From a virus (taxonomy: Duplodnaviria > Caudoviricetes): a DNA stretch of 64,000 nt. Below the pieces are notes generated by a model. It saw only the letters and a list, made by a program, of their open reading frames with translations, had not been told where the DNA came from and did no database searches. The stretch covers positions 1-64,000 of the IMG/VR virus record IMGVR_UViG_3300028591_000099; one strand, written 5' to 3'. Below are positions 7,367-14,278 of this stretch, piece after piece (positions within the stretch are counted from its first letter, which is position 1; the number at the start of each line of letters is the position of its first letter). Made by a program: the position numbers and the translations under genes.

Positions 7367-8038
7367 TCAATGTTTGAAGGCAATTTCACGAACGAGTTTT
7401 TTCTTGCGTTTATTGAGGTATCCCATAATTGCGGTTTCAATTTCGACGTCCTTTAAGCCAGTGTGAGATTCAGTAAAGTTGGGGTCTTTGAGAATGTAGC
7501 GATAGACTGTTTCAGCCTTGATTTGCGGACGCCCATTTTTTGTGAGGTAATTATTTTCCTCGCAGAATTTCACATAGTTGCGATTTTTGAGGAAGGTCTG
7601 CTTCGCCATTTTCATAATGTCGATGTATTGCGTATCTTTAGGGAAGAAATACCATTTTTTGTTAAGGAAGGAATTAGTCTTTTTTAATGCATAGTAATCG
7701 AATGAGGTATTGTAAGCCGCTACCTTTTTGATGTTGTATTTCTCCATCAAGTCAAGGATTTGCGTTCTCGCATCATCGAACGAAACGAGCGACCGCACAC
7801 CCTCGCCAATTTCTACAAAATACTGAGGGAGTTTGTCAGCGTAGTATGAAGTTTTCATACGCTTGTATTCGCCTTGGAAAATGTCCTCGACTACAAGATT
7901 TAATGTTTCATAGATATTGCCAAGTCTATCACAAACCGCAACCCCAATGTCATAGGTGAGTGCGTTACAACCATAGACCCCTTTAGAATGGTCGAAGGTT
8001 GCGGTTTCAGTGTCGATAGTCAGAATGTAATCTTTCAT
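7367..8038 (-). CDS. DEDDh 3'-5' exonuclease; ends at TGA
   Basis: IDTET, AYNTSFD, HTGLKD motifs. Confidence 0.85.
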   Translation of the reverse strand: MKDYILTIDTETATFDHSKGVYGCNALTYDIGVAVCDRLGNIYETLNLVVEDIFQGEYKRMKTSYYADKLPQYFVEIGEGVRSLVSFDDARTQILDLMEKYNIKKVAAYNTSFDYYALKKTNSFLNKKWYFFPKDTQYIDIMKMAKQTFLKNRNYVKFCEENNYLTKNGRPQIKAETVYRYILKDPNFTESHTGLKDVEIETAIMGYLNKRKKKLVREIAFKH

Positions 8039-9087: not shown

Positions 9088-9103
9088 GTTAGGTGCACCT
9101 AAC
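9088..9103. promoter_or_regulatory. GTTAG-N6-CTAAC palindrome (DtxR/MntR-like); further copies at 6662, 9872, 9906, 10964, 11056
   Basis: recurring 16-bp inverted repeat with a variable centre. Confidence 0.5.
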
Positions 9104-9247
9104 AACCCAAGTCCGCAAACCAAAAAAGCCCCCTCACTAGGGCTCTTTTGGAAGAGAGGAAACAAGAAAAATGAATTTAGGAGGAAGAAACAAGGGCGAA
9201 AGGTGGAAACTTTAGCCCCTCTTTTTACCCCCTAAAGGGGGAGAAGG

Positions 9248-9583
9248 TTAGGCAACCTTGAACAGAGTTACCTTACCTTCCTTGACCTTGACAACAGAGC
9301 CATTGTCAACTAACTGTTTGAGCAGAGCCGAAGCCTTCTGATTGGAGGACAGACCGAGACCCTCTGCGATAGCAGTAGCAGTAGCACCTTCAGTGTTGCC
9401 GAGGAAGTCAACGATAGCACCCTTGATACCCTCGTTTTCAACCTGATTCTTGGTAGCCTTGCGAGTGCCGTTAGACTTGCGAACAGACTTTAACGCACGT
9501 TCCTTTAAGAAGGCGAAGTCATCAGCAGACAGATTAGCGAAGTCGATAGCGTTGATACGAGCAGTGATAGTCATTTTTTCCAT
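9248..9583 (-). CDS. putative winged-helix DNA-binding protein, family A
   Basis: KATKNQVEN, TATAIAEGLGLSSNQKASALLKQLVDNGSV wHTH pattern. Confidence 0.8.
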   Translation of the reverse strand: MEKMTITARINAIDFANLSADDFAFLKERALKSVRKSNGTRKATKNQVENEGIKGAIVDFLGNTEGATATAIAEGLGLSSNQKASALLKQLVDNGSVVKVKEGKVTLFKVA

Positions 9584-9934
9584 AGTTTTAACACCTCTTT
9601 CTTTTTACATTTTTATTTTAACATGGAATGTTTGGTTTGTCAAGTCTTTTTTTGATTTTTTTGAGAAGGTTGGTAGGGAACTTGACCGAGCCCCTCTTTA
9701 CCTTACATCTTAATGATAGCACCTTTTGGAAATCTTGTCAAGCATTTTTTTTAATTTTTTTGAAGATTTTTTTGAGGTGGTAGTTAGGATTTTTCCCTCC
9801 CTACATTATTTATTATACTGATTTTCGGGATAATGTCAATAGGTCTGCGTAAAAAAGTTTTAATTTTTTTTGTTAGTTAAGCCTAACAAAGTTCGCCCGG
9901 GCGGTGTTAGCAGCCGCTAACTTTCGGCCGCAAC

Positions 9935-10778: not shown

Positions 10779-11185
10779 AGTGATTACCACCTTACCTTTC
10801 TTACATTATTAGTATAAGCGATTTTAGAGATTTTGTCAAGCACTTTTTGAACTTTTTTTGAAGTTTTTTTTTGAGGGCTTGCGGTCTCTCCTCATCCCTT
10901 ACACTTATTATTATAATGATTTCTTAATAGAAGTCAATACCCAATTTTAAGGTTGGCGTAATTTTAGGACAACCTAATCAAAGTATAAAAAAATGCGATT
11001 TTGCTCTTGACAACTGGGGGTCGGATGTGGTATAATTTTCGGCCCGCCCTCGGTTGTTAGGGAGACCTAACAGAGCGTGCGCCCGGGGCTAAGCCGGTCG
11101 GTTTCAGCAAAAATCGCACACAATGAAAAATTATCTATTGACTTTTGGACTAAAGAGAGTATAATAATAATTGTAAGAGAGGTAA

Positions 11186-11899
11186 ATGAAAATGAACTTA
11201 ATGACTATTGATACAGAAACAACAAACTCACTTGATGACCCAATCGTCTATGATTTGGGTCTGGCAATTCATGATGAAAATGGTAATGTATTCCATACTG
11301 AAAGCCTTGTAATCGCAGAAACATTCCTCAATGAAGAATTGATGAGCGTGGCTCTGTTCGCAGATAAAATCCCAACCTATTGGAAAGACATTAAAGAGGG
11401 CAAAAGAAAGTTAGTTAAACTCTCTACTGCTAAAAGAATTGTTAAAAATCTGATTAAGCGGTATGGTATTAAAACAGTAATAGCACACAATGCGTTCTTT
11501 GATTACAAATCATTAAATACTACATTACGCTATTATTCAGGTTCAAAATACAGATACTTCTTGCCTTGGGGCGTAGAGATTTGGGATAGTCTGCGAATGG
11601 CAAAAACTGTTTTGCTGAAAGATGAAAAGTATGTGAATTGGACGATTGAAAATAACTACTTGACAGAAAAGCGGAAAAGTCCAAAGTTGACCGCAGAGGT
11701 CATCTATCGCTACATTACGAATGATGAAAGTTTCATTGAAGAGCACACAGGTTTGGCTGATGTGATGATTGAGAAAGAAATCACAAAGTATCTCTTGGCT
11801 CGCAGAGACCCCAACATGAAACGCATGCTATTTAATAAGTCCAAAAGTGAAGATACAGAGGACTTGATAGCATGGTATCTAAACTCACTCGCAGAGTGA
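11186..11899 (+). CDS. DEDDh 3'-5' exonuclease (paralogue of 7367..8038); ends at TGA
   Basis: IDTET, AHNAFFD, HTGLAD motifs; own promoter; TGA lies inside a terminator hairpin. Confidence 0.85.
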   Translation: MKMNLMTIDTETTNSLDDPIVYDLGLAIHDENGNVFHTESLVIAETFLNEELMSVALFADKIPTYWKDIKEGKRKLVKLSTAKRIVKNLIKRYGIKTVIAHNAFFDYKSLNTTLRYYSGSKYRYFLPWGVEIWDSLRMAKTVLLKDEKYVNWTIENNYLTEKRKSPKLTAEVIYRYITNDESFIEEHTGLADVMIEKEITKYLLARRDPNMKRMLFNKSKSEDTEDLIAWYLNSLAE

Positions 11900-12112
11900 G
11901 TTTTTTACACAAAAGGTGGCCCGGATTTTTGGGCAAACGCACAAAAGCAAAATAATTGCGAAAATTGCTTGACAAAATGCGGGGGATGTGCTATACGTAA
12001 AACTCGCACCGAGCGGCCCGGGCTCGGCGCGACGAAAAGTCAATAAAAAAGCCAATGGGCAAGAGAGGTAAGGGGACCCATTGACTAGGAATTGGTTATT
12101 TAGGGGTAGAAA

Positions 12113-12242
12113 GGGGGTGAGTGGGAGTCGAACCCTAATTCACTTATTCAACGTCTAGACATACGCAAGTAATCCGCGGTTCCTTGAATAGAGGTCTAGG
12201 TTGGAAGTCACTACAGCCACTTCGTGTTAGAAACTTCACCCC
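12113..12242 (-). ncRNA. tRNA/tmRNA-like structured RNA (about 130 nt)
   Basis: GGGGTGA/TCACCCC acceptor-like stem, GGG-TTCGACT-CCC T-arm, internal CAACCTAGAC/GTCTAGACGTTG stem. Confidence 0.55.
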
Positions 12243-12278
12243 ATTTTTTAGAGGGGGAGAGGGTCTCCCCCAAGAGGG

Positions 12279-12608
12279 CTAGGCAATTCGCCAAGTTGCC
12301 TTGACCTTGCCCTTACCTTCAGTCTTTACGAGACCCTCGCCATAGTGCGTGAGCAGAGCAGAGACTTTCTGATTGCTGAGGTCGAACGCTTCCTCAATGT
12401 CCTTGCAAGTGACAACACCCTTTTCAGCGATGAAGTCCTTAATCTTTGCCATCAGTTCAGCATTGGCAACCTGAACCTTTGTGGGCGTGGTTCTCTTATA
12501 GGACTTCTTATGTCCTAACAGTTCGATTTCATGGTTGCAGAAGTCAACGATTTCAGCGTCATTGGAGCAAACAGTAGCGATGCGAGCGAACATTTCTTTC
12601 TTTGTCAT
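12279..12608 (-). CDS. putative winged-helix DNA-binding protein, family A
   Basis: PTKVQVAN, SNQKVSALL motifs. Confidence 0.8.
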   Translation of the reverse strand: MTKKEMFARIATVCSNDAEIVDFCNHEIELLGHKKSYKRTTPTKVQVANAELMAKIKDFIAEKGVVTCKDIEEAFDLSNQKVSALLTHYGEGLVKTEGKGKVKATWRIA

Positions 12609-13014
12609 AGATTTAACACCTCTTTCTTTCTTTACATTTTTAGTATACCATGACTTGGTGGGTTTGTCAACCCTTTTTTGAGAGATTTTCACATTTACTT
12701 CTTCTTTGAAGTTTCAGCGTAGGCAACCTCTCTCGCCTTACATCTTCATTATAGCACTTTTTGATTTTTTGTCAAGCACTTTTTGAAGATTTTTTGTAGA
12801 TTTTTGATGAGCCTCTATGCAACACTTTTCAGTTTGCAGGTCTGTCGCCTCTCGGCTATCTCCGACTCGCTCTTGAGGCTCATCTCTCTCCCTACACTTA
12901 TTATTATACTCATTTAAGAAGTAATGTCAAGGGTTCTTTTTTAATTTTCTTTAAGTTTTTTTATTCACAAGCGGCCGCCCGGGGCAATTTACCCGGGGCA
13001 GAAAAAAGACTGCC

Positions 13015-13257
13015 TTAGCAGTCCCAATCATACCCTCCCATGTAAGGATTGTAGCCTACTTCAGACCCCCAATAATCATCATCAAACTCGAGGTCTTCAT
13101 CAGGCTGTTCCGAAGGAAGCAGTTCCCAATCCATTCGAGAATTTTTGCGAAGGTAGCCACCATAGGCTTCAAACTCATCGTGGGCAATTTCCCAAAAGAG
13201 TTCGACATTGTTTAGAGTGAAGATTTCGCCTGTAATGTTGTTTGTGAATGTATACAT
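13015..13257 (-). CDS. small acidic protein
   Basis: own promoter and RBS; C-terminal GYNPYMGGYDWDC. Confidence 0.75.
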   Translation of the reverse strand: MYTFTNNITGEIFTLNNVELFWEIAHDEFEAYGGYLRKNSRMDWELLPSEQPDEDLEFDDDYWGSEVGYNPYMGGYDWDC

Positions 13258-13343
13258 TTTACTTACCTCTCTTTACATTGTTAGTATAACATAGTAGGGG
13301 TGTCTTGTCAATAGTGATTTGAAAAAAATAAGCCATTTTTGGC

Positions 13344-13583
13344 TTATTTTCTATTTTTGTAAGAGGGGATTTCAATTAACCAATTATCTAATTTTTTGCT
13401 AATGTGAATAATGGCCTCATCTGTGTAAGTAGTTACATCTTTACAATTATAGATTTCATCTTGAGACATTGTTTCAAACTTCTCTTCGGGAACTAACAAA
13501 CAAGGGCACAAAAGCACAATTTCGCCTTTTTCAACATCAAAATCGACACCATTTGCTTCAAGAACTTTAATTAACTCATCCAT
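13344..13583 (-). CDS. hypothetical protein
   Basis: GAGGT RBS before ATG 13583; own promoter. Confidence 0.7.
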   Translation of the reverse strand: MDELIKVLEANGVDFDVEKGEIVLLCPCLLVPEEKFETMSQDEIYNCKDVTTYTDEAIIHISKKLDNWLIEIPSYKNRK

Positions 13584-13730
13584 TTTTTTAATACCTCTTT
13601 TCTTCATTATTATTATAAAATACTTTTTCAAAAAAGTCAATAGAAAATTGAAAAGTGTTTGCGGCCGGCCGGTCAACCGCCCGGGAGGGTCTAGGTAAAA
13701 CCGGTCTCAAAATCGCCCGGGCGCAAGCAC

Positions 13731-14144
13731 TCAACCCCACAAAGCAATAGGGTCAAGTGCAAGTCCATTCCAATTTTCTCTTATCTTTTGGTTGTCATCT
13801 ACGAGGATAGCATTTTTTGAGTTTTTCAAGTTTTTATTATTCCCATACTTTCTGTAAATTCGTTTTGAAATTGAAGGGAAATAAGCATCAAGCCAAGCGT
13901 TTTTCATTTTAATTACTCGCTTGCAGTATTCCGCACTCGCATTTTTCGGTGTCATTGATAGAACGATAATTTCATAGTGGTCTTTTGGAAAAACCGATTT
14001 CAATACTTCTTCAGTAGTCAGTCTTTCATCTCCACCGAACACTGTTTCATCTTCACTCTCCAGTCTTGCGAGCCAGTTTTTCTTACCATACAAGTTGAAG
14101 ATAGTTCCGTCCATGTCAAGATAAACTCTAGTCTTTTTCATCAT
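13731..14144 (-). CDS. HAD-family 5'(3')-deoxyribonucleotidase-like protein; ends at TGA
   Basis: YLDMDGT and ILVDD motifs. Confidence 0.8.
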   Translation of the reverse strand: MMKKTRVYLDMDGTIFNLYGKKNWLARLESEDETVFGGDERLTTEEVLKSVFPKDHYEIIVLSMTPKNASAEYCKRVIKMKNAWLDAYFPSISKRIYRKYGNNKNLKNSKNAILVDDNQKIRENWNGLALDPIALWG

Positions 14145-14278
14145 TCTTACCTCTCTTTACAATACTATTATATCACATCGGGGGACGGTGTCAATACCTA
14201 AATTAAAAAGTTGTATCAAAAGTTGCCCCGGGCGTATCCATTAGAGAATAAAAGCAAAAAAGAAGAAGCAGAGAGGTT

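Follow-up and report, generated by a model that had tools for sequence, protein, structure and literature searches.

The 3′ untranslated region (UTR) of an early gene in a sheep-rumen phage contains a 129-nt element that combines an acceptor stem and a T hairpin in tRNA geometry but has no anticodon arm. The explanation that we prefer, with a probability of roughly 45%, is that this element, derived from a tRNA, acts as a signal to RNase P and RNase Z, which would shape the mRNA's 3′ end much as they do at t-elements. Equally tentatively, we regard it as a remodelled tRNA gene that has lost its decoding parts and kept the acceptor/T-arm 'top half', as read by RNase P, RNase Z and the CCA-adding enzyme.

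The DNA analysed here (the window) comprises the first 64 kb of a phage genome of 160,981 bp that is 93% complete. This genome came from metagenome runs of the sheep gut and is matched more weakly in gut runs from bovine and goat hosts, and its phage identity is borne out by portal and terminase genes. On the minus strand, the early region (1 to 22 kb) follows the standard code, and the plus-strand late genes are open only with TGA read as sense. The early gene in question belongs to a family (family A) with five paralogues in the genome. The features of the locus, in the order of the early transcript, are as follows.

12642 to 12775, minus strand: two sigma-70-type promoters, TTGACA-16-TATAAT and TTGACA-17-TATACT, upstream of the family-A gene.
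12279 to 12608, minus strand: family-A early gene of 110 aa, winged-helix-like, with orthologues that are all 108-110 aa; its 3′ UTR carries the element.
12253 to 12271, minus strand: GC-rich hairpin GGGGGAGA-CCC-UCUCCCCC, 7 nt past the stop codon and 10 nt ahead of the element, with no U tract after it.
12114 to 12242, minus strand: anticodon-less element of 129 nt, putatively tRNA-derived, as judged from sequence, fold and homologous slot elements.
12236 to 12242, minus strand: 5′ acceptor strand GGGGUGA, pairing 7/7 with 12114-12120 and preceded by U at position -1 (12243).
12204 to 12223, minus strand: small hairpin GAAGU...ACUUC, from the fold; absent from L023-type relatives.
12149 to 12203, minus strand: long central hairpin CAACCUAGAC...GUCUAGACGUUG, from the fold; an insertion relative to the 59-nt form of close relatives.
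12121 to 12137, minus strand: T arm UAGGG / UUCGACU / CCCAC, with the inner three pairs only; the outer two positions are U-C and A-A.
12114 to 12120, minus strand: 3′ acceptor strand UCACCCC, from sequence, fold and pair counts.
12113, minus strand: discriminator-like C, from the sequence.
12041 to 12086, minus strand: intrinsic terminator, a CAAUGGG...CCCAUUG stem followed by UUUUUU, 27 nt past the element.
12004 to 12032, minus strand: second terminator, downstream of the first.
11186 to 11899, plus strand: convergent DEDD-type exonuclease gene, which closes the slot, with the same synteny in relatives.

The transcript thus runs from the stop codon through 7 nt, the GC-rich hairpin, UCUAAAAAAU, the element and an A-rich spacer to the terminator. 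The element starts 37 nt past the stop codon and places a tRNA-like fold at an mRNA boundary, which is the position characteristic of the t-element class. This succession of hairpin, element and terminator is a conserved arrangement. No promoter was found between the family-A gene and the element; from this layout, the element would be transcribed from the two promoters of that gene as part of its 3′ UTR. In the sheep-rumen metatranscriptome X3, assembled contigs cover 12311-12764 (the family-A gene) and 11819-12031 and none covers 12032-12310, which bears neither way, as contigs cannot show transcript ends.

Two observations concern the paralogues of these genes. The exonuclease gene at 11186-11899 (plus strand) has a paralogue at 7376-8038 (minus strand) with 39% identity, and each of the two lies beside a family-A gene. 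The family-A paralogue at 9320-9604 (minus strand) is followed by a 3′ UTR (9100-9320) that opens with a CCCCC/GGGGG hairpin and then AAAAAGAGGGGCUAAAGUUUCC, similar to the way in which the element starts with hairpin-AAAAAAUGGGGUGAAGUUUCU. No T arm comes after it, and the region may be a further-decayed copy.

The structure that the original prediction had described from the letters of the window held up in every part. Pairing of GGGGTGA with TCACCCC is complete (7/7, 12242-12236 with 12120-12114), and the canonical T loop on a 3-bp stem is present as GGG-TTCGACT-CCC at 12135-12123. The AC that follows, directly before the 3′ acceptor strand, lies in the place of positions 64-65 of a 5-bp T stem and is unpaired opposite TA, leaving three of five T-stem pairs beneath a canonical UUCGACU loop. 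The 3′ strand of this T arm, CCCAC, is that of the tRNA-Lys(CUU) which occupies the slot of relatives. RNAfold pairs G9-U10 with the AC (12121-12122) and so arrives at 12 stacked pairs (7+2+3), and the 12-bp stack is reached only in this way. A long CAACCTAGAC/GTCTAGACGTTG stem in the middle, also proposed at the outset, was reproduced by the fold at 12203-12149. The small hairpin competes with a D-arm-like UUUC/GAAG pairing, and the fold energy of the element as a whole, which has a core of 98 nt, is ordinary (z = -1.16). At the 3′ end, a C is followed by TTTCTACC (C-UUU), confirming that no CCA is encoded. An anticodon-type 7-nt loop is absent from both the sequence and the folds, with the motif UUCAA located inside a stem, and the view of the element as a tRNA mimic without an anticodon arm was right. 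A distal 3′ partner for the acceptor strand, CUACCCC (12103-12109), appeared in a longer-context fold and was rejected, as L038, L041 and L042 have lost this complement and keep the proximal one.

Programs that search for tRNAs and known RNA families pass over the element. ARAGORN made no call on it by default, with introns allowed or at the 80% threshold, and Rfam gave no match at gathering scores or at E<=10 (RF00005, RF00023 and YrlA). No paralogue was detected by blastn-short and nhmmer in the whole phage genome or in the loci, and blastn of 11000-14000 against INPHARED phages gave no match. In IMG/VR, we found neither the exact 22-mer of T arm plus acceptor strand, nor a match to the exonuclease protein, nor a G55-type pattern with a CACCCCC acceptor. 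The 22-nt string occurs once in the window and in 0 of 100 shuffles. A strict scan, demanding a 7-bp acceptor stem, a 5-bp T stem and the T-loop motif, returned from the phage's own genome only real tRNAs and two AT-rich chance matches. A chance origin of the element is excluded by its context, since the orthologous slots of relatives contain either true tRNAs or further modules with an acceptor stem and a T arm.

This slot, consisting of an orthologue of the family-A gene and the convergent exonuclease gene, was recovered from many rumen assemblies by protein searches and contig look-ups. Its content switches sharply between close relatives, being a true tRNA-Lys(CUU), another anticodon-less element or nothing. 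The long form is nearly unchanged in at least seven assemblies: L032 is identical to the window, L033-35, L037 and L040 carry three substitutions, all in the core, and L036 has one further substitution that breaks a pair of the long hairpin. The other anticodon-less elements measure 50-83 nt and share a GGGG(G)UG acceptor stem; they occur in L023-type loci, L025, L044, L045, L047 and L081. A 59-nt form with a perfect T arm (CUGAG/UGCAACU/CUCAG) is found in L023 and in a further eight loci, with 90-100% protein identity to L023 and 94% to the protein of the window. L025 has a 50-nt form with the acceptor GGGGGUG/CACCUCC and A73, where G3:U70 together with A73 makes up the alanine identity set, and the forms in L044, L045 and L047 measure 72, 54 and 75 nt, respectively. 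The element at L081:222-304 is an 83-nt four-armed structure with a 6-bp anticodon stem and a long unpaired variable region, which ARAGORN calls tRNA-Ala(tgc), yet position 33 is C and G3:U70 is absent. It may stand midway between a tRNA and the minihelices. In L026-28 and L003, the slot is taken by a canonical tRNA-Lys(CUU) with CCA. Finally, L043, with 90% protein identity, retains the upstream hairpin and the terminator (1530-1600) with the element precisely missing, and the element is therefore dispensable. Close relatives thus provide a clean natural series of true tRNA, four-armed oddity, minihelix and nothing.

Downstream of more distant family-A genes, the slot holds tRNA-Lys(UUU or CUU), tRNA-Gln or further anticodon-less modules. 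The latter (L060, L072:1640-1709, L058:2524-2566, L088:541-599, L073 and L083) are 43-69 nt long, have unrelated acceptor sequences and lie 11-54 nt past the family-A stop codons. Two of them are above threshold for the Rfam tRNA model, L088 with 44.6 bits and L072 with 37.4 bits. In 142 distinct slots downstream of family-A genes, the strict scan yielded 19 matches, compared with 0.06 in shuffles.

To what extent selection has acted on these elements can be read from pair counts, made in Python for the seven lineages of the GGGG(G)UG group in an alignment anchored on the element ends. The acceptor and T-stem cells are paired in 79 of 84 cases (94%), with the neighbouring protein going down to 58% identity, and in controls with slid 3′ partners 44-64 of 84 were paired. 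Compensatory changes are present at A5-A7 and T1-T4, with two to four pair types each. Covariation among homologues, which the original prediction had named as a check, therefore exists at the level of the family. In L045, one acceptor pair is traded for a sixth T-stem pair (6+6 bp), so that the 12 stacked pairs are kept. Four lineages carry G at T-loop position 55 (UGCRACU), a base compatible with the T-loop motif though not with a working tRNA. The cores, by contrast, span 19-98 nt, resemble one another no more than they do shuffles and have no common motif. As the stems are conserved and the middles behave like shuffles, only the part needed by the tRNA-end enzymes has been kept.

Outside the stems, none of the tRNA-like slot elements encodes CCA, and the discriminator base is C, A or U, differing even between identical elements. 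In 25 of 26 slots, the tRNA or mimic is preceded by a stable hairpin that lacks a U tract and whose end lies 2-10 nt upstream; these hairpins are unrelated in sequence (mean z -3.3). The base at position -1 is U in 17 of the 26 related slots. The window copy shows each of the features by which we define the minihelix family, namely the slot, GGGG(G)UG pairing, a T arm before the 3′ strand, U(-1) and no CCA, and deviates in a single respect, the two unpaired outer positions of its T stem. It is the weakest, degraded member of the family, and the 3-4 substitutions within the long-form clade are too few to show constraint on this copy. The near-identity of the short forms of L023 and L038 was discarded as a sign of selection: the identical tract extends to synonymous sites of the gene, and it therefore reflects a recombination tract and not selection on the element.

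These data bear directly on the main rival explanation, which we consider possible though doubtful, namely that the element is a decaying relic. A tRNA gene of the slot, tRNA-Ala-like or tRNA-Lys-like, would have lost its function and now drift in the window phage with no role. The incomplete T stem of the window copy, its large lineage-specific insertion and the missing CCA agree with this, as does the silence of ARAGORN and Rfam. The central hairpin is not conserved among near-identical variants either, being broken in L036 and folded differently in L033; the element is gone from L043, and L081 looks like an intermediate on the way from a tRNA. However, neutral decay would not yield stems that are 94% paired with compensatory changes next to randomised middles. 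Furthermore, the 7-bp acceptor stem of the window copy is perfect, and the long form persists almost without change.

The retention of the 12-bp acceptor/T stack, the T loop and the upstream hairpin, with the decoding parts gone, therefore favours a t-element-like module. For RNase P, RNase Z and the CCA-adding enzyme, an acceptor/T-arm minihelix suffices as substrate, and RNase Z of B. subtilis acts on CCA-less precursors. The layout of the locus, with the acceptor stem and T hairpin in tRNA geometry and a terminator after the element, is supportive as well. We envisage that host RNase P would cut at U(-1)/G1, near 12243/12242, and that RNase Z would cut past the discriminator, near 12113, which it can do because no CCA is encoded. 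The freed mRNA would then be trimmed by 3′ exonucleases up to the GC-rich hairpin at 12271-12253, which would protect it, and a small tRNA-shaped by-product would be set free. Recognition by RNase P, which the original prediction had raised in the form of a decoy, is in our view plausible for a processing site and not for a decoy.

The t-elements of plant mitochondria are cut at their ends by RNase P and RNase Z, and exonucleases trim the transcript to the final mRNA end (PMC1920247); the freed t-elements can receive C/A additions (PMC1920247, Forner et al. 2007). Like the phage element, t-elements lie beside mRNAs and have a tRNA-like structure that does not decode, with a T arm that is conserved and an acceptor-like stem, and canonical tRNAs take the equivalent positions there, as tRNA-Lys does in the phage slot. 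They differ in that they belong to an organelle and not to an early phage transcript and share no sequence homology with the phage element, for which cleavage is a proposal. The phage element, in addition, has its own stabiliser hairpin on the upstream side and an intrinsic terminator on the downstream side. Full-text literature searches found no description of minihelix or anticodon-less tRNA-like RNAs in phages.

The T4 RNAs C and D have tRNA-like ends that are processed by RNase P. They are likewise small phage-encoded RNAs linked to tRNA genes, but they lie inside a tRNA cluster, unlike the window element, which is located in an mRNA 3′ UTR 126 kb from the tRNA array. In the literature, these RNAs, also called species 1 and 2, are small, linked to tRNA genes and of unknown role (PMC3014915). 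Compared with a canonical phage tRNA (RF00005), the link is the slot of relatives, which holds tRNA-Lys, tRNA-Gln or the odd tRNA-Ala-like gene. The window element itself differs by its 98-nt core and by the absence of CCA and of a 5-bp anticodon stem with a 7-nt loop.

ARAGORN placed 22 tRNAs and a tmRNA at 138-148 kb of the phage genome. The tmRNA (genome 138397-138751, minus strand, outside the window) has the acceptor GGGGGUG/CACCUCC and A73, the same as the 50-nt slot element of L025, and a tag peptide predicted by ARAGORN as ANFVKNIIAKVKNFFAPSYQVTFAC. The tRNA-like domain of tmRNA resembles the window element in having an acceptor stem and a T arm without an anticodon arm. The idea that the element is a tmRNA mimic acting as a decoy for SmpB is nevertheless not supported: the element has G3-C70 in place of G3:U70, has C73 and lacks the GGAUUCGAC motif, a GGAC ahead of the T arm, and CCA, it does not match RF00023 at E<=10, and no SmpB gene is present in the phage genome. 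As a positive control, RF00023 detects true 60-67-nt mini-tmRNAs on other phage contigs with 53-69 bits.

These mini-tmRNAs deserve mention in their own right. At least 81 viral contigs in IMG/VR carry RNAs that no tRNA finder calls, most of which are tag-less 'mini-tmRNAs' of 60-67 nt. They are built of GGGGGUG, a GG..UCGAC motif, a short hairpin, GGACG, a T arm and CACCUCC-ACCA, with G3:U70, A73 and an encoded CCA, and they contain no tag reading frame and no pseudoknots. Examples are L147:2015-2081, L124:6437-6500, L130:298-363 (minus strand), L119:7487-7553, L125:3162-3228 and L131:234-300. Six of eight that were checked reached the above scores with the Rfam tmRNA model, in alignments that delete about 310 positions from the centre of the model; a seventh scored 40.3 bits, below the 47-bit cut-off. 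At 1-2.5 kb from mini-tmRNAs, there are matches to the twister-P1 ribozyme at 40-54 bits, below the gathering score of 67 bits, and to RAGATH-24, one of them with 49.9 bits and thus above the 45.3-bit cut-off (L125:1401-1458, L147:1077-1134 and L119:5029-5100 for the two models).

A relationship to YrlA, the second known RNA invoked in the original prediction, was likewise not borne out. YrlA is a tRNA-mimicking non-coding RNA that is also found in phages (PMC4201824, Chen et al. 2014), and in M. smegmatis it is cut by RNase P and receives CCA (PMC4201824). It has a Ro60-binding stem, an adjacent Ro60 gene and an internal tRNA-like domain, unlike the window element, whose acceptor stem is formed by its own RNA ends. 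Rfam gave no YrlA match, and no TROVE (Ro60) domain was found in the phage genome, with control genomes positive.

An alternative that we consider unlikely is a trans-acting decoy or carrier. Here the released minihelix would receive CCA from the host and bind a reader of the top half; EF-Tu, a synthetase or a tRNA-directed defence nuclease or toxin would be examples, and the variable middle would serve as specificity module. The quick turnover of forms and their presence or absence in close relatives are typical of counter-defence loci, the element belongs to an early gene with strong promoters, and L025 carries the alanine identity set. Moreover, passages in PMC10264068, PMC11464382 and PMC11555353 describe phage tRNAs, notably tRNA-Lys, as countering tRNA-cleaving defences. 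On the other hand, the discriminator varies even among identical elements, G3:U70 occurs in one lineage only, the middles have no common motif, and the phage genome contains none of the partner genes, be it SmpB, Ro60, a CCA-adding enzyme, an RNA ligase or RtcB. For the more specific proposal of a decoy for anticodon nucleases, the element offers no anticodon-like 7-nt loop, and RNA-repair genes of any kind are missing from the phage genome, which speaks against it. We judge it similarly improbable, and if anything slightly more so, that the elements form a family of early trans-acting 'top-half tRNA' RNAs, cut and CCA-added, that titrate a host acceptor/T-arm reader, for example a defence nuclease or toxin, with the hypervariable middle engaged in an arms race; in that case, the alanine-identity copy of L025 would hint that some are even charged.

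A weak match of the early ORF at 13731-14144 to a PNKP phosphatase had suggested a tRNA-repair context, which was rejected: PHROGs identifies a deoxyribonucleotidase, and there is no RNA ligase or RtcB. This ORF and the adjacent one at 13344-13676 (both minus strand) form one frame of 270 aa only when two TGA codons are read as sense (window 13344-14156), and the product resembles a HAD phosphatase or 5′-3′ deoxyribonucleotidase. The region 13344-14156 (minus strand) may therefore be a TGA-containing gene within the 'standard-code' early region.

That the element is a working odd tRNA, or that it takes part in the recoding of TGA to Trp in the late genes, is very improbable; the original prediction had offered a link to the code switch as one possibility. 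The late genes do read TGA as sense, ARAGORN found no tRNA(UCA) without introns, and the acceptor GGGGUG resembles the AGGGGUG of the suppressor tRNA. With introns allowed, however, ARAGORN identified an intron-split tRNA(UCA) at genome 101637-101911, with the acceptor stem AGGGGUG/CACCCCU and an encoded CCA, which is the sole UGA-reading tRNA. CCA is in fact encoded in this suppressor tRNA, in all 22 phage tRNAs and in the tmRNA, but not in the element. The element also lacks a decoding loop, its UUCAA being buried in a stem, and its closest relatives have unrelated middles or, like L043, no element at all. A false lead is thereby removed: the element is not the missing piece of TGA-to-Trp recoding.

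Hardly more credible is that the element is a piece of a host tRNA or tmRNA gene, retained as an attP-type site for integration. The 3′ end of such a gene is often found at the attP of phages, and the L025 element shares the acceptor stem of the phage's own tmRNA. Yet the element has both acceptor strands although attP can do without them, neither a tyrosine integrase nor a serine recombinase is encoded in the 93%-complete genome, and the slot is a 3′ UTR between convergent genes.

Several observations also count against the processing signal that we prefer. The window copy is a poor member of its family, its fold energy is ordinary, and L043 does without the element. In addition, the terminator 27 nt downstream would on its own provide a protected 3′ end, so that the benefit of cutting is less evident. 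If the processing signal is nonetheless real, host enzymes that mature tRNA ends would take part in the maturation of phage mRNA, and many 'intergenic' stretches passed over by tRNA finders would be functional. The slot series, for its part, shows which parts of a tRNA remain under selection after decoding has been lost.
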